From Escherichia coli (GTDB taxonomy: Bacteria > Pseudomonadota > Gammaproteobacteria > Enterobacterales > Enterobacteriaceae), in the NCBI RefSeq assembly GCF_030384885.1, contig NZ_CP128613.1: a DNA stretch of 64,000 nt; one strand, 5' to 3'. A program made the position numbers and the translations under genes. The notes beneath the pieces were generated by a model that worked only from the letters and a program-made list of their open reading frames with translations, made no database searches and was not told where the DNA came from. Shown here one piece after another: positions 1-12,059 of the stretch (within the stretch, counting starts at the first letter, position 1; each line of letters begins with the position of its first letter).

Positions 1-39
1 GATACAGTAATATTAGGGTGGGATGCCAGTCTCAATAAT

Positions 40-783
40 ATGGATGGTCCGACAAAACAAGAATTTGAAGAGATGTTGGAACCAGAAGGTTTAGATTTGA
101 ATAATTATCTCACCGACTCTTGCACACCTGTCAGGAAGGTTACAATTTCCCCGATGCTGGTTGAAAGAAACGTTCACGCCGAACCAAGTTGGAAGGAAGT
201 ATCTCTTACGGACCCCCGCATCACAGAGAACAGCATGCTGCAAAAATTTCTGTCTGATTATATGGAAAAAATTAATCCTGGAGTTCACGAATTAAACGCA
301 AGATTGAGATTACAATATATAGATGGGGATTTATTTGCACAAATATATGAATCAATTAGCTATGATGAGTTACTTCAAAATATCCAAAGCAATAGTTTTG
401 ATCTTCCGAGCGAAGATGAATGGGAATATTTATGTGGCGGTGGTTCCAGGACACTCTGGCGCTGGGGGAATAATTTCGACTATCAAATGAAAATCCCATT
501 TATTACTTCAGAAGAACCAACAACCTGGGATATAGAATGGCCTAATCAGTTTGGGTTGCAGATTGCATTTGATCCCTATCTTCAGGAAATTATTAATGAT
601 AAAGATATTCTTCTGAAAGGTGGCGATGGTGGGTGCAATCTCTGCGGAGGTGCTAATGTTGTATTAGGATTCTTGCCTGTGGCAACTTATTACAAAGGAT
701 ATAATAAACATACGGACGAATTAGAATATATGGATGACATTGGAGACAATTATACTTCTTATCGCAGAATAATTCGTTTATGA
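40..783 (+). CDS. hypothetical protein with FGE-sulfatase-like (SUMF1/EgtB/PvdO-type) domain
   Basis: 247-aa ORF; motifs SEDEWEYLCGGG, WRWGNN and PNQFGLQ resemble the conserved core of formylglycine-generating-enzyme-family domains; sits in AT-rich DNA. Confidence 0.45.
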   Translation: MDGPTKQEFEEMLEPEGLDLNNYLTDSCTPVRKVTISPMLVERNVHAEPSWKEVSLTDPRITENSMLQKFLSDYMEKINPGVHELNARLRLQYIDGDLFAQIYESISYDELLQNIQSNSFDLPSEDEWEYLCGGGSRTLWRWGNNFDYQMKIPFITSEEPTTWDIEWPNQFGLQIAFDPYLQEIINDKDILLKGGDGGCNLCGGANVVLGFLPVATYYKGYNKHTDELEYMDDIGDNYTSYRRIIRL

Positions 784-834
784 GTAAAAATTATATTTCA
801 GGACAAGAAGTTATGCTCGAGTCAAGCTAATGAA

Positions 835-2346
835 TTGCTTAACGCAAGGAATAAAAACGTATTGATGAACACTGGGAATTTCGAGTCGATACAAATCATG
901 ATCGCCGCGCAAGAGTGGCGTAGCCTGCCGCTGCATCTGCGTTTGTATCAGGCTTTTCGTCAGTTGGTGATTTCTGGCGCGTTGTCTGATGGCGCAAAAC
1001 TGCCGTCCGCTCGCGCACTGGCCCAGCAACTGCACCTTTCCAGAGATACCATCGAAAATGCCTATTCCCAGCTCCACCGCGACGGTTTTATGGCTCGCAG
1101 GCAGGGGGCCGGGAGTTTCGCCAGCCGCCAGGGGATACCGCATATTCAGGGCCAGCATGCGCAACCACCCTCGCCCGGACAAGTACCGGCTTTAAGCGCT
1201 CGCTGGCAGCCAATTGCCGATCGCGCAGTCTCTTTCGATGCCCGCCAGATGCAGACCTTTACGCTTGGCCTGCCGGAAACGCGAAACTTCCCGCTAAACA
1301 TTTGGCAGAACTTTTCCCGCCAGATCCAACGTGAGCAGGCGCATACGCTGATGTTAAATAGCGATCCGCAGGGCGAGCCACAGCTGCGCCAGCAAATTGC
1401 GCATTACCTTAATTTTGAACGCGGCGCGAAGGTAGATGCCGGGCAGATTGTGATTGTCAGCGGCGCACGGCAGGCGTTCTGGCTGTGCGGGCAACTGCTG
1501 GCAGAGGCCGGACAGTCGGTGGCGATGGAAAATCCGGGCTATCCCGGCGCGCGTCAGGCGTTTTCTGCCGCACAGCTTAATCTTCTTCCCGTTGAAGTGG
1601 ATGACGCCGGGATCCGGGTGGATAAACTGCCGCCCGCGCCGCTGGTTTACGTCACGCCCTCGCACCAGTTTCCTTCCGGTCATTTGCTCACGCTGGCGCG
1701 GCGTCATGCCCTGATTGCCTGGGCGCAGGCGCACAATGCATGGATTATCGAAGACGACTACGACAGCGAATTTCACTACACCAGCGCGCCCGTCGCCTGT
1801 CTGCAAGGGTTAGACTGCGAGCAACGCACCCTGTATGTCGGCACTTTCAGCAAAACGCTCTATCCCGGCCTGCGCATCGGTTATCTGGTGGTGCCGACGT
1901 CGCTGGCTGCGCACTTTGCCGCCGCGCGTAATTTGCTTGATGGCGCAACGCCTGCGTTATCCCAACTAACGCTGGCGCGATTTATCGAGTCCGGTCATTT
2001 TGCCGCCCATATTCGCAACATGCGCAGTATGTACGCAGTGCGACAGGCGAGCCTGGCAGAGGCTATTCATCAACACTTAAGTGAATGGGTCACGCCAGTG
2101 GTGACATCCGGTGGGTTACAAATGCCCTGCTGGCTGCATGAAGGTATTGATGAGCAACAGACGCTAAATGCCGCGCGCCGCGCCGGGTTAAACATCGCCG
2201 GAATGCGCCAGTTCTGGCTGACGCACCCCGCGCCCGCGGGCTGGCTGCTGGGATTTGCCGCCTTTACCCCCTACGAGATTGAACAGGGCGTCAAGCGTCT
2301 GCGGGCTGCATTATGCACTGAAAACGTGCGCCCAGCCGGGTCATAA
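835..2346 (+). CDS. MocR/GntR-family transcriptional regulator with PLP-dependent aminotransferase-like domain
   Basis: 503-aa ORF; N-terminal HTH-like segment (LPSARALAQQLHLSRDTIENAY) followed by an aminotransferase-fold domain with candidate PLP lysine (TFSKTLYPG); true start probably an internal Met near 898. Confidence 0.7.
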   Translation: MLNARNKNVLMNTGNFESIQIMIAAQEWRSLPLHLRLYQAFRQLVISGALSDGAKLPSARALAQQLHLSRDTIENAYSQLHRDGFMARRQGAGSFASRQGIPHIQGQHAQPPSPGQVPALSARWQPIADRAVSFDARQMQTFTLGLPETRNFPLNIWQNFSRQIQREQAHTLMLNSDPQGEPQLRQQIAHYLNFERGAKVDAGQIVIVSGARQAFWLCGQLLAEAGQSVAMENPGYPGARQAFSAAQLNLLPVEVDDAGIRVDKLPPAPLVYVTPSHQFPSGHLLTLARRHALIAWAQAHNAWIIEDDYDSEFHYTSAPVACLQGLDCEQRTLYVGTFSKTLYPGLRIGYLVVPTSLAAHFAAARNLLDGATPALSQLTLARFIESGHFAAHIRNMRSMYAVRQASLAEAIHQHLSEWVTPVVTSGGLQMPCWLHEGIDEQQTLNAARRAGLNIAGMRQFWLTHPAPAGWLLGFAAFTPYEIEQGVKRLRAALCTENVRPAGS

Positions 2347-3397
2347 TCTCATACGGGATGGTGTTGCAGGCAGCGGCAACCTGTTCCAGCGTCTGGCCTG
2401 CGCCAATAAATTCCACCTTATCGCCCGCTGTCGGCGTGACGGCGCTGGCATCGACCATAAAGCTGTCCATACAAACCCGCCCCAATACCGGTAACCGCAC
2501 GCCGCGCCAGCATACGCCCGCCGGAGGACGCATATTTCGCGGAACGCCATCCGCGTAACCCGCGGATATCGTAGCGATACGCAGCGGACGCGTGGCGGTA
2601 ATCGTACTGCCATAGCCAACTGGCGTTCCCGCCGGGACATCCTGCACGCGCAGAATAGTTAGCGTCAGCGTAAAAGCCGGTTTTAGCGGCCTGGAAAACC
2701 ACGGCTGGGCGACGCCAAACAGCGCAATCCCCGGACGGCAGAGATCTTCCCGCCAACCTGGTTGCAAAAACATTCCGCAGGAGTTCGCCAGCGAAAATCG
2801 GCTGCTGGGGAAAACCGTTTTTGCCTGCTGGAATAGCGCGTGTTGCGCCACATTTAACGCATGATCCGGCCTGTCGGCGTTCGCCAGATGGCTGATGATA
2901 TAGTCCGGCGCAGGCCAGTTACGCTCACGAAATATCGCCGCCAGACGCATCAGTTGTTGCGGCATCACGCCCAGCCGCGACATACCGGAATCGAGCTGGA
3001 TCATCACCGCACGCCGCTGCTGGCGCGTTTCCAGTAACGTAAGCCACGCCATCACCTGGTCAATGGAATTGAGCAATGGCGTGATCTGCTGCGCGTAACA
3101 ATACGCCATCGCCTCCGGCATAACCCCATTAAGCACTACCACCATCGCATCAGTGGGCAGGATTTTACGCAGCGCCACGCCCTCCGAAAGCTGTGCCACA
3201 AAAAAGATCCGGCAGTTCGCCGCATACAGGGCGGGCGCAATCGCCTCCGCCCCCAGACCATAGGCATTGGCTTTCAACACCGCGCCACATTGCGCAGGGG
3301 CAACATGGCGCGCCAGCGTGCGATAATTATCGACGATGGCGGCGAGATTGACGCACATAACGCCGCACGCCGCCTGGATTTCAGTAGAAGTCATCAT
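2291..3397 (-). CDS. alanine racemase family protein (PLP-dependent)
   Basis: 368-aa ORF with PLP-lysine motif VLKANAYGLG typical of alanine racemases; start overlaps the stop of the upstream SHMT-like gene. Confidence 0.7.
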   Translation of the reverse strand: MMTSTEIQAACGVMCVNLAAIVDNYRTLARHVAPAQCGAVLKANAYGLGAEAIAPALYAANCRIFFVAQLSEGVALRKILPTDAMVVVLNGVMPEAMAYCYAQQITPLLNSIDQVMAWLTLLETRQQRRAVMIQLDSGMSRLGVMPQQLMRLAAIFRERNWPAPDYIISHLANADRPDHALNVAQHALFQQAKTVFPSSRFSLANSCGMFLQPGWREDLCRPGIALFGVAQPWFSRPLKPAFTLTLTILRVQDVPAGTPVGYGSTITATRPLRIATISAGYADGVPRNMRPPAGVCWRGVRLPVLGRVCMDSFMVDASAVTPTAGDKVEFIGAGQTLEQVAAACNTIPYEIMTRLGARFQCIMQPADA

Positions 3398-4632
3398 TGA
3401 TAAGACAACGGGTAGCGGTTGGTTAGTTGTATTACTTTTTGCTCAATATCGGCGCAAATGCCTGCGATATCTGACGAGTTGATGGCGAAAATGATTTCAC
3501 TTATCCAGTCAGCAATAAGCACAAAATCATCCGCCTTCATCCCACGCGTGGTGCAGGCCGCGCTGCCAATACGGACCCCGGAGGTAATCGACGGCGGCTG
3601 CGGATCGCCCGGCAGGGTGTTTTTATTGACCGTGATCCCCGCCAGTTCGAGAAAGTACTCCACCTGTGCGCCGGTTAACCCCTGCGGGCGCAGGTCGATA
3701 ATCCCCAGATGGCAGTCGGTGCCGCCCGTTAACAGCGTCAGACCGCGCTGCGCCAGTTGCTGGCACATCGCCTGCGCATTGTCGATAACCTACCCGGCGT
3801 AACGTTTAAATTCTGGTTGTAATGCCTCGCCAAGCGCCACCGCTTTCGCCGCGATAACGTGCATCAACGGCCCGCCCTGCAAACCGGGAAAGATGGCGCT
3901 GTCGATTTTTTTCGCAAGCCTGGCGTCATTGGTGAGGATCATGCCGCCGCGCGGCCCGCGCAACGTTTTATGCGTGGTGGTGGTGACCACATCAGCATAC
4001 GCCAGCGGCGAAGGAAAACAGCCGCCCGCCACCAGCCCGGCAAAGTGCGCCATATCCACCAGCAAAATGGCATCAACGGCATCGGCAATGCGGCGAAAAC
4101 GGGCAAAATCATAGTGGCGTGGATAAGCCGATCCTCCGGCAATAATTAACCGTGGGCGCTCGCGTAGCGCGATCATCTCGACCTCATCCATATCAATCAG
4201 GCCACTATGGGCATCGACGCCATAGTGAAAGGCGTTAAACCATTTGCCGGATTGATTGACCGGAGAACCGTGCGTGAGATGCCCGCCGCATTGCAGGCTC
4301 ATGCCAAGAATTTTGTCGCCGGGCTTCAGCAACGCCAGATAGACCGCCTGATTCGCCTGGCTGCCGGAGTGAGGCTGCACATTGACGTAACGCGCGCCAA
4401 AGAGCTGCTGCGCGCGGGTTATCGCCAGCATCTCAACCTCATCAATAAACTTACAGCCGCCGTAATAGCGATGCTGGTAATAACCTTCGGCGTATTTATT
4501 GGTTAACACCGACCCCTGCGCCGCGAGAACGGCGGGGCTTACGAAATTCTCCGAGGCAATCAGTTCCAGCGACTGCTGCTGGCGCTGTTGCTCCTGGTTA
4601 ATCAATGCAAAAAGTGGATCGTTATTTATCAT
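3394..4632 (-). pseudogene. serine hydroxymethyltransferase (GlyA-like) paralog interrupted by an in-frame TAG at 3790-3792
   Basis: ORFs 3790..4698 and 3394..3768 are in the same frame; both halves align to SHMT ([17 protein letters not shown]-lysine motif; GITVNKN); the stop sits where GlyA has a Gln in the YQQQV region. Confidence 0.65.
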
Positions 4633-4864
4633 GCGCTTCCCCCGCAAATTCATCATGCGATGATTTTCGCAGGGAAAACCTCGTCCGCACCCTGCCACTT
4701 TTTAGACTGAGCGCAGACCACCTATGTCGTTTTACTTAAAAGAAGAGGGAAGAAGGCTCCAGGCATCTCCATATGCGATTCTGGTTGGTAATACATCATA
4801 TTCCAGCTGCTCTTATCCGCCTACGTTATTGCATATACGGATAAGGCAGCCTCAATACGTACTT

Positions 4865-6430
4865 TTACTTGATATCTTTCACGCGCATACCGTTGATCTG
4901 TTCATCCGTGATGGTATTACCCGCTTTAAAGTAATCAACCACCGCGTGATAAACGTAATAACCGCCCGTCGTATTGCGCGCTTTACCCTCGGTAAACGCG
5001 GTAAAACCATCTCCACCATCAGCAAGGAAACTCTGAGTGGCAATGTGGTAAACCGTCGCATCTTCAATCGGTTCGCCATTCAGAGTCAGCGAGATAACCC
5101 GCTGACCAACCGGCTTGCTGCTGTCGTACTTCATTTCCAGGCCTTTCGATACCTGTAAAACGCCATTACTTAAACTTGCGCCGTGTTCCATCAAACTGCG
5201 TAATTGTTTACCCGTGAGTTCCATCGTCACCAGTTCGTTGGGGAACGGGAAGGTACTGATGACGCCACCCATCGTAATTGCACCCGCCGGGATCTCATTG
5301 CGGATACCGCCAGAGTTGGTTAACGCCAACTGGGTATTTTTACCCGCCGCTGCCAGCAAAGCGTCCGCCGCCAGATTCCCGAGAGAAGCCGATTCACCAT
5401 AGGCACGTTTCAATTCAACTGGCGATTGCGCCACCGTTTGCTGCACGACTTCATCCAGCTTTTTATTCCAACTATCAATCACCTGTTTTGTTTGCGGATC
5501 GGGCTTCCACTCGTCGGCGTAAAGGGTTTTAAGCTCGAAGTTTTTCACCGTAAAAGTGTGCGGCTTCTCTTTGTAGTCTAGAACCAGTTTACCCACATCA
5601 ATCCCGCCGCTGTCAGTGGAGAGGATTAACGTATTGCCGACTTTAATCGGTTCCGGCGTACCCACATGTGCATGCCCGGTGATCAAAATATCCAGCCCTT
5701 TCACCTGACTTGCCGTCTGAATATCTTTATCCAGTGCGCGGCGCACATCTGTGCCCCCCATACTGGACTGGCGGGCCGGAACACCTTCGTGAATCAGCGC
5801 AACGGTCAAATCAACCTTGCCTTTGAGTTCATCGATATAACGTTGTAGCCATTTAATTTCATCACGCGCCTCAATACCCACTCGCGTTGCCGCAGATACC
5901 GTATCATTAAAGGCAAATACACCGTGCAAACCAATCACGCCAATTTTCACGCCGTCTTTTTCAATGATGGTATAGGGCTTATCCCAGAATGATTTACTGC
6001 TGTTCTGATAAAAAACATTACCCTGCACAATCGGGAATTTTGCCTGACTCAACTGTAATAACGTATTGTCCCAGCCGTGATCAAATTCATGATTACCTAT
6101 AGTGGCCGCATCGAACGGCATGGTATTCATAATATCGATAATCGCCTTGCCTTTAGTCAGGCTGCTAATATACGGCCCGGTAAAATAGTCACCCGCATCA
6201 AAAAACCAGGTCGCTTTGTTTTTAGCTTTTTCTTGTTTAACAAGCGTAGTGATATTTGCCCAGCCGCCAATATCTCGTTTACCGTCAGCAATCCACGGCA
6301 CTTTATAAGGCTCTACATGTGCATGGAGGTCGTTGGTATAAATGATGGTGACATCTTTGGCGCAAGCCCAAAACGGCAGTGTTAATGCGATACCCGCAGC
6401 AAGCATTTTAATTTTCATAAACAATCCCAT
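4865..6430 (-). CDS. secreted bifunctional metallophosphatase / 5'-nucleotidase (UshA family), paralog 1
   Basis: 521-aa ORF; signal-peptide-like N-terminus; metallophosphatase motifs [23 protein letters not shown]; C-terminal 5'-nucleotidase domain. Confidence 0.8.
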
Positions 6431-6477
6431 CCAGTGAGATAAAGGATTGCTACATTACGTTCTGAAAGGCTTTTTTA

Positions 6478-6493
6478 TGTGAGAATACTCACA
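6478..6493. promoter_or_regulatory. perfect consensus CRP-type site TGTGA-N6-TCACA in divergent promoter region
   Basis: sequence TGTGAGAATACTCACA read directly between the divergent nucleotidase gene (4865..6430) and the zinc-ribbon gene (6551..7678). Confidence 0.4.
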
Positions 6494-6550
6494 TCCAGAG
6501 GCGATAACTGTAGGACAAAATCAACGACCTTATGAAATCGTTGGTGATAT

Positions 6551-7678
6551 ATGTCAAATCTGTTTGCGATTAATGTCTGTAAAACGTTCGGTTGTCGAAA
6601 TTTGGGATTGGCCTCATCGGAAGATTACAGTTGGCCAGACTATAAACTGGGTTTTCCGGCACTGCACTGCCAGGCATGCGGAAGTTACCCCCCTTTGTTT
6701 GATGAACAACAATTTCGTGACTGGTTGTCAGTTCACATGACTGCGTGTGCCATAGAAACAGGGCATTTTTGTCCATCATGCTATTGTAAAGAAAAGATTT
6801 TTTATGGCCACAACCCGCAGGGAACACAACGCGTTCAATGCCGTTCATGCAAAAAAGTCTGGACTCCGAAACAGCAGCCAGCAAGAGAAATTACGTATCC
6901 CCAGTCCATTGAAACCGTTCAACTGTTCATGCCCTTTCAAGGAGCCAGCGCAGTACAAAAGCTCTATGTTTTAGTCAGTCTTGACGCCACTCGTGGCAAC
7001 ATCCTTCATCTCTCCACGAATTATACGCAACATCAGACAGGAGACAGTCTGCGGTACAGTTACAGAGGCAATACAGAACCAACTGAGCACCATAGCGATA
7101 TTGCGCAGAGGGTAGATATGCGTGAAGCACAATTCTTGCGCCGGAGCCAGTTCGATGAAATTCAGTATGGCAGTGCTGTGCTCAAGCGCAACGGCAAGGG
7201 AGCCATACTACGCCCGGTTATCACGGCACACGGGCATTTCAGAATACTGAAAATCCGCTTTCCACATGTCAAAACGCATATCATTTCACACGAATGTTTT
7301 CTGAGAGGCGCAATTATTACAGCCTGGGCAGATCAGTTCCGCCAACAACAAGGCGAACTTTGGTTCGTAGAGGAAGAAATCAGCGACCGTAATGCTGATA
7401 TTCCCTGGCATTTTCAGGGAACGACATACCATGGTTGGTGGCAAAATCAGTGGCAACGCTGGGGGCAGGGGAATAACAGCAAGATGGTCTGCCTGCTCAC
7501 AGGAGTCTCCTTAGAAAGGGGCGCAAATGTTTCTCTGGCAACCAGTCGTTGCTTTATCACATGGCTGACAGACCAACACGACTTTACCCAAAGCGCGTTA
7601 TTATCCGCAGGTCGCGTAACGAAAATGCTGACCTCACTGGCGTTAAAATACAATGAATCGCTCACTCCATCTTGTTAG
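6551..7678 (+). CDS. hypothetical protein with N-terminal Cys-rich zinc-ribbon (IS1 InsA-like / transposase-type zinc finger)
   Basis: 375-aa ORF; Cys pattern CPSCYC...QRVQCRSCKKVW resembles InsA-type zinc ribbons; the rest has no motif I recognise. Confidence 0.45.
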   Translation: MSNLFAINVCKTFGCRNLGLASSEDYSWPDYKLGFPALHCQACGSYPPLFDEQQFRDWLSVHMTACAIETGHFCPSCYCKEKIFYGHNPQGTQRVQCRSCKKVWTPKQQPAREITYPQSIETVQLFMPFQGASAVQKLYVLVSLDATRGNILHLSTNYTQHQTGDSLRYSYRGNTEPTEHHSDIAQRVDMREAQFLRRSQFDEIQYGSAVLKRNGKGAILRPVITAHGHFRILKIRFPHVKTHIISHECFLRGAIITAWADQFRQQQGELWFVEEEISDRNADIPWHFQGTTYHGWWQNQWQRWGQGNNSKMVCLLTGVSLERGANVSLATSRCFITWLTDQHDFTQSALLSAGRVTKMLTSLALKYNESLTPSC

Positions 7679-7907
7679 TCAATACACTCGACAAACGACC
7701 ATAAATTAATGGGATCACTATTTCTCATTTAATTAAATATATGAATGTATGACTGAAAAATATAATCACAGTCAATGTTTAATTAATAACATTATTTGTT
7801 ACTAAGATCACATAATACTTTCCTGACCTATGTTTACATAAAAATAAGACACGGTGTTCCTTTTATTTAAATAATTCAACCAATGTAACAACCCCTATCA
7901 AGGAGGG

Positions 7908-9461
7908 ATGATGAGAACTGTATTTACGACTTTATCAGTCATATTCAGCGTGATGTTTTCTCACAGTATACTAGCTCAGGACGTTACTATTTATTATACG
8001 AATGATATTCACGCACATGTCAATCCGGCAAAAATTCCCGCTGTTGATAAGAACAGACTTGTAGGTGGTATGGCTAATATTGCAGGCATCGTTAATGAAG
8101 CGAAGAAAAAAAACAAAGATGTCTTTTTCTTTGATGCAGGCGACTATTTTACCGGTCCGTATATCAGTACCCTGACCAAAGGTGAAGCTATTATTGATAT
8201 CATGAACACCATGCCCTTTGATGCGGTGTCCGTTGGTAATCACGAGTTCGATCACGGCGTGCCCAATATGGTATCTCAGTTATCAAAAGCAAAATTCCCC
8301 ATTCTGCTGGGAAATATTTACTACACCGATACAAATAAACCAGTTTGGGATCATCCGTGGACCATTATCGAAAAAGATGGTTTAAAGATTGGTGTGATTG
8401 GATTGCATGGTGCATTCGCTTTCTATGATACAGTCGCGGCAAAAGCACGTGAAGGCGTAGAAGCCAGAGACGAAATTAAATATTTAAATAAAGCACTTGC
8501 AGAATTAAAAGGTAAAGTCGACATTACCGTTTTGCTAATTCACGAAGGTGTTCCGGCGCGTCAATCAAGCTTTGGTAGTAAAGATGTGGAGCGGCTACTA
8601 CAGGCAGATATTGAGACAGCTAAAAAAGTGAATGGTGTTGATGTCTTAATTACCGGTCACGCACATGTCGGAACACCGCAACCAATAAAAGTTAATAACA
8701 CATTAATTGTATCTACCGATGCATACGGCACCGACATCGGAAAACTTGTGCTTGATTACAATCCGAAAACAAAGAAAATTGATAGTTATAATGGTGAGTT
8801 AATCACCATCTTTGCAGATCAATTTAAACCTGACACCATCGTTCAAAATACTATCGATAAATGGAGCATAAAGCTTAACAAAATAACACAGGAAGTTGTC
8901 GGCCATTCTCCCGTAGTTTTAACACGTGAGTATGGCAGTTCTTCTTCTACCGGTAACCTTATTCTAGATGCAATGATGGAAAAAACACCTGATGCCATTG
9001 CCGGATTTCAAAATAGCGGTGGGATGCGAGCTGATTTTCCTAAAGGTGATATCACACTGGGAGATGTTATTAGCACATTCCCCTTTAATAATGACCTCAT
9101 CGAGATGGATTTGACGGGCCGCGATCTCAAATCATTGATGACGCATGCAACCAATCTAACTAACGGTGTGTTACAGGTTTCAAAAAGCGTTGCGGTTGTC
9201 TATGACAGCAAAAAACCACTCAACCAACGGTTAATCTCTTTCACCATTAACGGCAAACCCGTGGAAGATAATCAAACATATCGTATTGCCACGCACTCCT
9301 TTTGTGCCAGTGGTGGTGACGGTTTTGAAGCATTTTTGAATGGAAAAAATGTGAAGACGATACCGGGAACAACCTCGGCGGAATCTATCATCGATTATTT
9401 CAAAAATCATAAACCTGTCACCCCAGACTTAACTAAACGAGTCATGGACGTCGCCAAATAA
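7908..9461 (+). CDS. secreted bifunctional metallophosphatase / 5'-nucleotidase (UshA family), paralog 2
   Basis: 517-aa ORF; signal peptide; same metallophosphatase motifs as paralog 1 ([23 protein letters not shown]). Confidence 0.8.
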   Translation: MMRTVFTTLSVIFSVMFSHSILAQDVTIYYTNDIHAHVNPAKIPAVDKNRLVGGMANIAGIVNEAKKKNKDVFFFDAGDYFTGPYISTLTKGEAIIDIMNTMPFDAVSVGNHEFDHGVPNMVSQLSKAKFPILLGNIYYTDTNKPVWDHPWTIIEKDGLKIGVIGLHGAFAFYDTVAAKAREGVEARDEIKYLNKALAELKGKVDITVLLIHEGVPARQSSFGSKDVERLLQADIETAKKVNGVDVLITGHAHVGTPQPIKVNNTLIVSTDAYGTDIGKLVLDYNPKTKKIDSYNGELITIFADQFKPDTIVQNTIDKWSIKLNKITQEVVGHSPVVLTREYGSSSSTGNLILDAMMEKTPDAIAGFQNSGGMRADFPKGDITLGDVISTFPFNNDLIEMDLTGRDLKSLMTHATNLTNGVLQVSKSVAVVYDSKKPLNQRLISFTINGKPVEDNQTYRIATHSFCASGGDGFEAFLNGKNVKTIPGTTSAESIIDYFKNHKPVTPDLTKRVMDVAK

Positions 9462-9495
9462 AATATCATTTATCAGTCTATTTATTTAACAAGGA

Positions 9496-11121
9496 ATGCG
9501 AATGAAAACAGTGCAGCGTACTTTACTTGCCGCAACATTGCTGACTATTTTTTCGGTCTCGGTCATGGCGCAGGATGTCACGATTATTTATACAAATGAT
9601 CTTCACGCTCATGTGGATTCTTATAAAGTGCCGTATATCGCAGACGGAAAACGCGACATTGGCGGCTTTGCCAATATATCTACTTTAGTAAAACAAGAGA
9701 AAGCGAAAAATAAAGCCACCTTTTATTTTGATGCTGGAGACTATTTCACCGGCCCTTATATCAGCAGTCTGACAAAGGGCGAAGCAATAATTGACATTAT
9801 GAATACCATGCCTTTTGACGCAGTATCAATCGGTAATCATGAGTTTGACCATGGCTGGGATAATGCCCTGCGACAATTAAGCAAAGCGAATTTTCCTGTT
9901 TTATTGGGCAATGTTTATCATAAAGAGAGTGAAAAACCCTTCTGGAACAAGCCCTACACCATCCTGGAAAAAGATGGCATCAAGATTGGTATTATTGGGC
10001 TACACGGCGTATTTGCATTTAATGATACGGTCTCGGAGCTCTCTCTCCAGGGACTCGATAATGACAATAATAACCGCTTTGATAAATCTTCCGAGACCCT
10101 TAAGAATCAGGGGATTGAAGCACGTGATGAAGTGAAGTATTTGCAGCATTATATCGACGAGTTACGTGATAAGGTTGACCTCACTGTGGCGCTGGTTCAT
10201 GAAGGCGTTCCGGCGCGTCAGTCCAGCATTGGCAATACAGATGTTAGACGCGCTCTTGATAAAGATATTCAAACCGCTAGCAAGGTGAAAGGATTGGATA
10301 TTCTGATTACCGGGCATGCCCACGTCGGAACGCCAGAACCAATCAAAGTCGGCAACACCTTAATCCTTTCGACTGATAGTGGCGGTATCGATATTGGTAA
10401 ATTAGTCCTTGATGTCAACCCTACAGCTCGTACCCATAAAATGAAGAGCTTTGAGCTGAAAACAGTTTATGCCGATGAATGGATACCCGATCCAACGACA
10501 CAAAAAGTTATCAATGGCTGGAATAAAAAACTGGCGGATATTGTACGCCAACCAGTGGGTGAATCATCGATTGCATTAACTCGCGCCTATGGTGAGTCAT
10601 CGCAACTAGGCAACCTGTTTACCGATGCAATGCTTGTCGCTGCTCCGACTGCACAGATTGCATTGATAAACTCCGGCAGCTTACGTGCGGATATAAATGC
10701 AGGCACGATTACCTTTGGCGACATTACCAGTACATTCCCCTTCAAGAATGAACTTACTGAAATGGATCTCAGCGGTAAGGATCTGCGTAACCTACTGGAA
10801 CACGGGGCATCGCTTACCAATGGCATCCTGCAAATGTCAAAAGGCGCAGAAATGCGCTATACCCCGCAGAAACCAGTAGGTCAGCGCATAGTATCTTTTA
10901 AAATTAATGGTGAAGAGATCGTTGATACGAATATTTACCATGTTGCAACAACGACTTTCCTTGCACTGGGGGGCGATGGTTTTCTGGCATTCAAAGAAGG
11001 GAAAAATGTTCAGGTCCGCGCCGGAAAAAACATGTCCGATGTCGTGATCGATTATTTGAAGAAAGGCCACAAGATTACGCCTGCACAGGTAAATGAAATG
11101 CGGGTGGACGTTAGCAAATAA
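9496..11121 (+). CDS. secreted bifunctional metallophosphatase / 5'-nucleotidase (UshA family), paralog 3
   Basis: 541-aa ORF, closely similar to paralog 1 by eye, with a short inserted segment (LQGLDNDNNNRFDKSSETLKNQG). Confidence 0.8.
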   Translation: MRMKTVQRTLLAATLLTIFSVSVMAQDVTIIYTNDLHAHVDSYKVPYIADGKRDIGGFANISTLVKQEKAKNKATFYFDAGDYFTGPYISSLTKGEAIIDIMNTMPFDAVSIGNHEFDHGWDNALRQLSKANFPVLLGNVYHKESEKPFWNKPYTILEKDGIKIGIIGLHGVFAFNDTVSELSLQGLDNDNNNRFDKSSETLKNQGIEARDEVKYLQHYIDELRDKVDLTVALVHEGVPARQSSIGNTDVRRALDKDIQTASKVKGLDILITGHAHVGTPEPIKVGNTLILSTDSGGIDIGKLVLDVNPTARTHKMKSFELKTVYADEWIPDPTTQKVINGWNKKLADIVRQPVGESSIALTRAYGESSQLGNLFTDAMLVAAPTAQIALINSGSLRADINAGTITFGDITSTFPFKNELTEMDLSGKDLRNLLEHGASLTNGILQMSKGAEMRYTPQKPVGQRIVSFKINGEEIVDTNIYHVATTTFLALGGDGFLAFKEGKNVQVRAGKNMSDVVIDYLKKGHKITPAQVNEMRVDVSK

Positions 11122-11135
11122 TAAAAAAATTATAA

Positions 11136-11166
11136 TGCCATTCATTCACTGAATGGCATTATTTTC
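11136..11166 (+). terminator. rho-independent terminator after nucleotidase paralog 3
   Basis: inverted repeat AATGCCATTCA-ttcac-TGAATGGCATT followed by a T-run. Confidence 0.6.
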
Positions 11167-11198
11167 TCTAAATCAACAATAGATAATGAGATATATTT

Positions 11199-12059
11199 AT
11201 GTGTATAAAAAAGCACGGGATAGCTTTATCGATTCTATTAATACCTTGCATTGGAAACGCTCAGAAAATTAAAAGTGAGGAAGGCTGGTTACATCAAAGC
11301 TTGAATGTCATTGGTCGCACAGACTCTCGCTTTGGCCCAAGGCTGACTAACGACCTCTACCCTGAATATACTGTAGCAGGAAGAAAAGACTGGTTTGATT
11401 TTTATGGTTATGTTGATCTACCAAAATTCTTTGGCGTCGGCAGTCACTATGATGTTGGGATCTGGGATGAGGGCTCACCACTATTTACGGAAATAGAACC
11501 TCGGTTTTCCATTGACAAATTGACCGGATTAAATCTTGCGTTCGGCCCTTTTAAAGAATGGTTCATTGCAAACAACTATGTCTATGATATGGGTGACAAC
11601 CAGTCATCCCGGCAAAGTACATGGTATATGGGGCTTGGTACAGATATCGACACGGGTCTACCAATTAAGCTTTCTGCCAATATATACGCCAAGTATCAGT
11701 GGCAAAACTATGGTGCCGCTAATGAAAATGAATGGGACGGATATCGATTCAAAATAAAATATAGCATTCCTCTTACCCATTTATTCGGAGGGCGATTGGT
11801 ATACAATAGTTTTACTAACTTTGATTTTGGATCCGATCTTGCGGACAAATCACACAATAATAAACGAACCAGTAATGCTATTGCTTCAAGCCATATCCTT
11901 TCCCTGCTATATGAACACTGGAAATTTGCATTTACACTACGTTATTTTCACAACGGTGGACAATGGAATGCTGGGGAGAAAGTTAACTTCGGAGATGGTC
12001 CATTTGAATTAAAAAACACAGGATGGGGAACCTATACTACTATTGGTTATCAATTTTAA
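11199..12059 (+). CDS. nucleoside-specific outer-membrane channel, Tsx family (paralog of tsx)
   Basis: 286-aa ORF with signal peptide; long conserved blocks shared with Tsx ([15 protein letters not shown]; [26 protein letters not shown]); ends in aromatic residue typical of beta-barrels. Confidence 0.85.

Follow-up and report, generated by a model that had tools for sequence, protein, structure and literature searches.

Known MocR-family regulators include the Gram-positive PdxR activators of pdxST or pdxKU, described in Corynebacterium, Listeria, Streptococcus and Bacillus clausii. Characterized PdxR activates when pyridoxal 5'-phosphate (PLP) is low, and its apo form prefers direct repeats (PMC5320631). 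A "PdxR (Proteobacteria)" regulog was predicted by Suvorova and Rodionov in 2016; it lists BB0707 with BenE and GlyA, and Pectobacterium ECA0408 with RimI, COG325 and GlyA (PMC5320631). The subject of the present study is a cluster of three genes within a 64,000-nucleotide stretch of Escherichia coli DNA (contig NZ_CP128613.1), the whole of which is referred to as the window. In this cluster, a MocR-family regulator converges on a two-gene operon encoding paralogs of serine hydroxymethyltransferase (SHMT) and alanine racemase (Alr). The most plausible reading makes the trio an enterobacterial variant of the predicted regulon, with an alanine racemase added. With somewhat better than even confidence, it would form a self-contained accessory module in which a PLP-sensing MocR protein of the PdxR (Proteobacteria) type controls an operon of an extra canonical SHMT and an alanine racemase.

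The locus resembles the proteobacterial PdxR regulog, exemplified by BB0707 with benE-glyA, in its MocR protein (46 to 47% identical), its SHMT target and its direct-repeat operator, and the Bordetella BB0707 regulator is likewise convergent with its target operon. It differs in that a full-length alanine racemase stands in place of benE, yggS and pdxK, leaving the module without a vitamin B6 salvage or transport gene; in addition, the 3' ends of the regulator and the operon overlap, and the module is enterobacterial, accessory and often inactivated. With the Gram-positive PdxR activators, the regulator shares the MocR architecture, an above-cutoff score for the NCBIfam PdxR model and a direct-repeat predicted operator close to the promoter of a PLP-related target. 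The locus departs from those systems in lacking a pdxST or pdxK target and in having its genes convergent instead of divergent, and the regulator scores no better on the PdxR hidden Markov model than on a non-PdxR MocR model.

Organization of the locus

The reference annotation was RefSeq record NZ_CP027579.1 (E. coli 2013C-4282), which is identical to the window, and the open reading frames (ORFs) and sequence of the window were also checked directly. The trio lies in the variable spot bounded by metF and metL, with metF to one side and a 5'-nucleotidase gene to the other, and comprises the following features:

865..2346, plus strand: mocR, MocR-family regulator (GntR winged helix-turn-helix and aminotransferase-like domains) of apparent PdxR (Proteobacteria) type, 493 aa; from ORF, RefSeq coding sequence and NCBIfam
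2291..3397, minus strand: alr, alanine racemase paralog, 368 aa, intact in this strain; from TIGR00492 and RefSeq
3394..4632, minus strand: SHMT, serine hydroxymethyltransferase paralog, 412 codons; a pseudogene here, with the RefSeq flag "internal stop"
2291..2346, both strands: convergent 3' overlap of mocR and alr, exactly 56 bp
3394..3397, minus strand: ATGA overlap of the SHMT stop and the alr start, read from the sequence

An earlier reading of the same stretch, made from its letters and ORFs (the sequence-only reading), had placed the three genes in these PLP-dependent families, and the assignments proved correct, with scores well beyond chance: the NCBIfam SHMT subfamily model gave 610.9 bits (cutoff, 335), TIGR00492 gave 234.1 bits for alr (cutoff, 168), and MocR-type models gave approximately 425 to 429 bits for the regulator. 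The predicted operon with an overlapping stop and start was borne out by the ATGA at 3394..3397, and the regulator was confirmed to converge on this minus-strand operon, the proposed 3' overlap of about 56 bp being exactly that length. The block had been given as 835 to 4698; the genes do lie there, but both ends are those of maximal ORFs. Position 835 is the earliest TTG of the mocR ORF, the conserved ATG being at 865, and position 4698 belongs to the longest possible SHMT ORF, the start that is preceded by a Shine-Dalgarno sequence and used also in other strains being at 4632.

The ATGA overlap suggests that SHMT and alr form a translationally coupled two-gene operon. The mocR/alr 3' overlap is also 56 bp in Salmonella and in the Escherichia contig L095, and it is 83 bp in a distant lineage adjacent to an integrative and conjugative element (ICE), described below. 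No terminator was found between mocR and alr in a scan that gave nothing above shuffled background. The mocR reading frame was intact in all copies examined. Salmonella records label the alr ortholog "alanine racemase 3," and a literature search for this name or for a MocR-SHMT-Alr cluster found nothing specific.

The regulator and its relatives

The regulator gave full-length matches to MocR-type NCBIfam models, and its orthologs of 82 to 98% identity carry PF00392 and PF00155. The score for the PdxR model (NF052282) was 428.7 bits, above the cutoff of 320, and that for the rhizopine MocR model was 424.9 bits, below the cutoff of 650. The motif TFSKTLYPGLRIGY is present in the regulator, and its Lys, judged from the family motif rather than from a structural alignment, is presumably the PLP lysine. 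The annotation of the 28-kb locus shows neither pdxS nor pdxT.

Beyond the enteric clade, two of the nearest SHMTs (64 to 65% identical) are likewise linked to a MocR gene. In Bordetella bronchiseptica, benE-SHMT converges on the MocR gene, and in Mesorhizobium, the MocR gene is followed by SHMT; the two MocR proteins are 46.8% and 46.4% identical, respectively, to that of the window over approximately 490 residues. A tblastn search of plasmids and chromids yielded further MocR orthologs at 45 to 47% identity; across ten loci, the neighbors were benE (8 loci), yggS (4), GNAT (4), SHMT (3), glutamine amidotransferase (3), pdxK (2) and an ArgD-like aminotransferase (2), with alr at none. These relatives span alpha-, beta- and gammaproteobacteria and correspond to the predicted regulog. 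By its sequence, the window regulator thus appears to match the "PdxR (Proteobacteria)" type. The B6 salvage, transport or homeostasis target typical of that regulog (pdxK, benE or COG325/yggS) was absent from the window operon; SHMT is a listed member, and alr is unlisted.

On plasmid p1_Teo12 of Shinella zoogloeoides Teo12 (L104, 4671-9723), the gene order is benE <- MocR -> SHMT -> yggS. Here the single-domain fold-type-III PLP protein YggS occupies the place of the enteric fold-type-III alanine racemase, which may be a coincidence or a hint of related regulon roles.

Predicted operator and promoter

When the sequences upstream of SHMT in E. coli, Salmonella, L095 and the ICE-adjacent lineage were aligned, their similarity was seen to start abruptly at a direct repeat. 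The elements assigned to this region are as follows:

4690..4720, minus strand: predicted MocR operator of two direct repeats; box 1, TGGTCTGC, 4720..4713; box 2, TGGCAGGG, 4697..4690
4636..4668, minus strand: inferred core promoter and leader; -10-like GAAAAT, 4668..4663; Shine-Dalgarno sequence GGGGGAAG, 4643..4636, before the ATG at 4632

The boxes lie 23 bp apart, start to start, with the general form TGGTCTGC followed by TGGnnGGG; in the alignment, box 2 reads TGG(C)(A/G)GGG and is preceded by an A-run. This was the only match in the 64-kb window. The same boxes, in the same register, were found upstream of the Bordetella benE-SHMT operon, Mesorhizobium SHMT and Ensifer benE. They were also found at three separate promoters in Gemmobacter (benE, yggS and GNAT), at the Phytobacter GNAT gene (in two overlapping registers) and at an Azospirillum amidotransferase gene. 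Altogether, the operator was present at 13 target promoters across 10 lineages, compared with 2.7 chance matches expected over the 394 kb scanned.

A poor -35 element overlaps box 2 and lies 17 bp upstream of the -10-like GAAAAT, and this stretch is conserved across lineages. The promoter scan found no consensus sigma-70 promoter, with nothing above shuffled background, which fits a predicted dependence of the SHMT-alr operon on an activator. An Rfam scan of 600..5100 at E ≤ 1 returned nothing, including no riboswitch in the leader.

The two enzymes

The SHMT paralog is approximately 62% identical to several solved SHMTs and approximately 55% identical to E. coli GlyA. The map from E. coli GlyA covered 27 positions involved in PLP, tetrahydrofolate (THF) or substrate binding or in catalysis, and all 27 were identical; in E. 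coli numbering, those checked include Y55, E57, Y64/65, H126, D200, T226, H228, K229, R235, P258, N347, R363 and R372. The GlyA sequence behind this map is presumed correct, its length of 417 residues and K229 agreeing with PDB 1dfo. The clade departs from otherwise invariant columns only at peripheral sites, among them A123C and, within the EGYPGKRYY loop, P60Y. When the SHMT was compared with plasmids by tblastn, the identities of plasmid-borne SHMTs were flat at 58 to 64% and uninformative as to any closeness to alpha-methylserine hydroxymethyltransferases.

The racemase fell below the cutoffs of the specific models tried, DadX (156.6 bits; cutoff, 600) and VanT-G (182.8 bits; cutoff, 460), and its orthologs carry PF01168 and PF00842. 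Its closest solved structure is Bartonella henselae Alr (3kw3), and its nearest relatives outside the trio are Alr proteins of alphaproteobacterial type, approximately 50% identical. Of 80 columns with 95% or more conservation among 107 homologs, it keeps 72, including K42 (the PLP lysine), Y262 (the catalytic tyrosine), R141 and R221. Tyr349 is also retained, within IPYE; we take the residue at this position to be Asn in VanT, separating alanine from serine racemases.

Since both enzymes keep all the catalytic residues checked, they look like isozymes rather than new chemistry. Their catalytic residues and predicted reactions (serine to glycine plus methylene-THF, and L-alanine to D-alanine) are those of E. 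coli GlyA and Alr/DadX. Unlike these housekeeping enzymes, they are encoded in one operon under a dedicated MocR protein and are accessory rather than core.

Distribution and lateral movement

The trio was found in 3 of 5,426 complete E. coli genomes, namely 2013C-4282, GF4-3 and RMDEC465. Its absence from the other 5,423, K-12-type strains included, confirmed that the cluster is not core, as the sequence-only reading had supposed. In most E. coli genomes that keep the neighboring 5'-nucleotidase gene, metF directly adjoins it. An intact trio occupies the same locus in Salmonella enterica, with Typhi, Enteritidis and Dublin among the serovars given in protein records, and in an Escherichia contig with an SHMT identical to E. 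fergusonii records. A more distant lineage (SHMT 86%, Alr 74% and MocR 82% identical to those of the window) also has all three genes, arranged in the same way. There, the trio adjoins an ICE backbone of the Salmonella pathogenicity island 7 (SPI-7) type, and no met genes are nearby. The trio is a mobile unit of fixed architecture, found in at least two genomic contexts.

Between E. coli and Salmonella, the synonymous divergence (dS) of the trio was 0.44 to 0.52, compared with 0.9 to 1.4 for the flanking metF, metL, katG and 5'-nucleotidase genes. Because the dS of the trio is about half that of its flanks, the trio has moved between the genera after their split. The insertion site is identical in E. 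coli and Salmonella despite the low dS of the trio, and the block homologous between them (window 840..4745 versus L005) extends from approximately 25 nucleotides before the mocR ATG to operator box 1.

A racemase scan of 100,044 species-representative genomes found nothing closer than 50% identity and no new contexts, even though the pattern CMDSFMVD is present in the racemase copies of Salmonella and of the ICE lineage; with no match above 50% among species representatives, the trio must be accessory even in the species that carry it. Racemase homologs at approximately 50% identity had neither an SHMT nor a MocR neighbor. A low-coverage contig of ENA ERZ808041 (L107, P0140, 2,531 bp) carries an rpiB-like gene with an SHMT of 72% and a racemase of 97% identity; it is a probable chimeric metagenome assembly and was not used.

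In GF4-3, isolated from guinea fowl (L003), the core genes flanking the trio differ from those of 2013C-4282 with dS values of 0.16 to 0.35, which is high for one species, and this strain may belong to a divergent Escherichia lineage. Its metF and mocR genes have a phosphotransferase system EIIC gene and a malI-like gene between them.

Inactivating mutations and selection

Four independent inactivating mutations were identified in Escherichia copies of the trio:

3790..3792, minus strand: amber TAG replacing Gln281 of SHMT (Q281, CAG>TAG) in 2013C-4282; CAG in RMDEC465, GF4-3, Salmonella and L095
4573..4575 in window coordinates: SHMT of GF4-3, Q20, CAG>TAG
2351..2353 in window coordinates: Alr of RMDEC465, Y349, TAT>TAG
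L096:11575-11577: Alr of Escherichia contig L096, Q114, CAG>TAG

All four are amber mutations, three of them CAG to TAG, and none lies in mocR. This bias was not significant, with P values of approximately 0.06 to 0.10 for four of four TAG given the codon content and approximately 0.1 for none of four in mocR. A glutamine-inserting amber suppressor would restore the wild type at the three CAG-to-TAG sites. The amber at SHMT codon 281, which is CAG in every other copy examined, removes the C-terminal third of the protein, including N338, R354 and R363; the SHMT frame is intact in RMDEC465, Salmonella and L095 and broken in the window strain. In E. coli, the module is rare and nonfunctional, and the window strain keeps only the regulator and the racemase intact. 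Many truncated, frameshifted or internally deleted alleles of the trio were also found in Salmonella, and hundreds of intact Salmonella and E. fergusonii copies exist.

The ratios of nonsynonymous to synonymous divergence (dN/dS) were 0.07 to 0.13 for SHMT (0.07 to 0.09 across lineages), 0.15 to 0.32 for Alr (0.18 to 0.24 across lineages) and 0.08 to 0.16 for MocR (0.09 to 0.13 across lineages). Because the long-term dN/dS is low (0.07 to 0.24), the module has been under purifying selection and of lasting use, the knockouts being recent events at the tips. From its amber codon, the sequence-only reading had suggested a decaying pathway. For E. coli this is borne out, the three complete carriers bearing three different nonsense mutations; for the module in general it is not, given the overall dN/dS.

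Contig L096 (Logan SRR15695300) has its 5'-nucleotidase, LysR and racemase genes all split within 21 kb, which suggests either a lineage in wider gene decay or a lower-quality assembly.

Composition and neighboring genes

The sequence-only reading described a GC-rich block in sharp contrast to the gene on its left. The contrast is real, but its source lies on the left: the trio (GC, 0.56 to 0.59; GC at third codon positions [GC3], 0.64 to 0.66) is similar to neighboring core genes such as katG and metL (GC, 0.56 to 0.58; GC3, 0.60 to 0.63), and the left gene is the AT-rich outlier. Composition, which had been put forward as a check for foreign origin, is therefore weak evidence here, and lateral movement is better evidenced by the halved dS of the trio and by the separate ICE-adjacent lineage than by GC.

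The AT-rich gene, which is the true outlier in composition here, is situated between metF and mocR (324 aa; GC, 0.365; GC3, 0.31; window 1..783, full gene L001:11110-12084). Copies occur in 2013C-4282, RMDEC465 and contigs L095 and L096 but not in GF4-3 or Salmonella. Neither it nor the flanking hypothetical genes received an NCBIfam or PADLOC assignment.

The rest of the metF-metL insert, window 4865..12059, looks like a nucleoside-scavenging islet, with three paralogous metallophosphatase/5'-nucleotidase genes, a gene for a Tsx-like nucleoside channel and one for a 375-aa "cytoplasmic protein." The first nucleotidase gene was found in approximately 708 of the 5,426 E. coli genomes, independently of the trio. 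In E. coli, Salmonella and E. fergusonii-type contigs alike, the gene for the 375-aa protein (6551..7678) keeps its place beside the nucleotidase gene; the protein weakly matched the zinc-finger part at the N terminus of the IS1 transposase (20 bits, well short of the cutoff; E = 4e-4). An imperfect inverted repeat, CTGCCTTATCCG ... CGGATAAGAGCAG, closely follows the stop codon of the 5'-nucleotidase gene, at 4795..4850 on the minus strand. It resembles a repetitive extragenic palindromic (REP)-type element or a terminator and is not shared by Salmonella.

A predicted B6-linked module

By the proposed mechanism, the regulator would bind the two boxes overlapping the weak -35 element and activate the SHMT-alr operon. 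By analogy with characterized PdxR proteins, activation would occur when PLP is scarce, and the operon would then reinforce two B6-dependent reactions that make what the cell cannot scavenge, namely D-alanine for the cell wall and one-carbon units. Possibly, the module serves as a backup under B6 limitation. In the account of Snell (1945) given in PMC10851380, D-alanine alone replaces the B6 requirement of Streptococcus faecalis. A doubtful elaboration is a cofactor-priority response, in which a PLP-sensing MocR protein would switch on dedicated, perhaps higher-affinity isozymes when B6 is limiting, in the manner of metal-sparing paralog switches. The isozymes would serve B6-dependent reactions yielding products that the cell is unable to import, here D-alanine and one-carbon units; in sister regulons, ArgD/DapC-type and BioF-type enzymes might have this role, and the conserved convergent 3' overlap with mocR might add antisense feedback.

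Several points weigh against a B6-linked module. PLP as the effector and the direction of control are drawn by analogy, and the PdxR score of the regulator is no better than its rhizopine MocR score, so the name fails to discriminate. The module itself lacks a B6 salvage gene, and alr occurs at none of the ten other ortholog loci, its place in the regulon following solely from the operon structure. In the alignment, the region upstream of mocR is unconserved between lineages and lacks the boxes. Recurrent inactivation in E. coli and Salmonella shows that the module is dispensable in many settings, and a literature search found no experimental work on the proteobacterial PdxR group.

Alternative explanations

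The sign of regulation is not fixed by anything in the sequence, and under the opposite logic, excess free PLP would induce the operon, its abundant PLP-binding enzymes acting as a sink or buffer for the reactive aldehyde cofactor. The PLP-homeostasis protein YggS in sister regulons would suit such a role. The sister operons also hold pdxK and benE, however, and inducing salvage and uptake under excess PLP would make little sense; moreover, characterized PdxR proteins activate at low PLP (PMC5320631), and a sink was judged unlikely. A substrate-specific pathway for an unusual amino acid appears improbable as well. For example, alpha-methyl-L-serine would yield D-alanine and methylene-THF (EC 2.1.2.7), the racemase would convert D-alanine to L-alanine, and MocR would sense the substrate. 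SHMT-family enzymes are known to perform such chemistry (PMC7782822, PMC10848231), and the tight SHMT-alr coupling through the ATGA overlap suggests linked steps. An operon precedent is provided by methylserine hydroxymethyltransferase and D-serine dehydratase in the cluster for degradation of tris(hydroxymethyl)aminomethane (TRIS) (PMC10848231; PMC7782822), where, as in the window, an SHMT-family gene shares an operon with a D-amino-acid enzyme. The TRIS cluster differs in having THF-recycling genes (folD, purU) and a transporter and no MocR (PMC10848231), whereas the window module has neither a transporter nor a THF-recycling gene, and its regulatory context is B6 related. Its SHMT is unchanged at every known catalytic or substrate position, the clade-specific changes (P60Y, A123C) being peripheral, and in other taxa, the SHMT-MocR pairing is kept without the racemase and with B6-related genes instead. 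The D- or beta-hydroxy amino acid metabolism put forward by the sequence-only reading is therefore disfavored, both enzymes being canonical at all residues checked. Neighborhood comparison, which it had named as a check, points the same way, with regulator orthologs adjoining benE, yggS, pdxK and glyA paralogs under a shared operator. Because these neighbors are B6 related and the operator is shared, a PLP-responsive regulon is favored over substrate-specific catabolism.

It is quite improbable that the operon supplies spare enzymes to replace GlyA and Alr when these are inactivated by 2-aminoacrylate or cycloserine-type inhibitors. GlyA-type SHMT and alanine racemase are both sensitive to cycloserine, which would count for such a role. 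In Salmonella, GlyA and Alr/DadX are documented in vivo targets of 2-aminoacrylate (PMC12172467), and RidA-family genes recur in MocR regulons (PMC5320631), but the module contains no RidA or efflux gene, the sequences carry no feature indicating resistance, and the regulog context points to B6 supply rather than damage. A functionless relic, that is, a horizontally acquired passenger eroding everywhere, is highly unlikely. The four independent Escherichia amber mutations and the many truncated, frameshifted or deleted Salmonella alleles would be expected of such a passenger. A dN/dS far below 1 across lineages diverged to a dS of approximately 0.5 to 1.1 would not, and neither would the conserved architecture and operator nor the hundreds of intact Salmonella and E. 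fergusonii copies. Given the canonical enzymes and the B6-related setting of the regulator, the sink, dedicated-pathway and spare-enzyme explanations are less well supported than the B6-linked module.

Significance

For E. coli, the significance of the locus is minor: the trio is a rare accessory unit in the metF-metL hotspot that is being lost through independent amber mutations. If the B6-linked module is real, the trio would be the most experimentally accessible member of a large and so far purely predicted regulog: its operator is compact, its two enzymes are easily assayed, and it is carried by E. fergusonii and by Salmonella Typhi, Enteritidis and Dublin. It would also extend the regulog to the supply of D-alanine for the cell wall and would allow a test of whether bacteria prioritize particular PLP enzymes under B6 limitation. 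For Salmonella and E. fergusonii, it would provide a tractable handle on an uncharacterized class of PLP-linked regulators.

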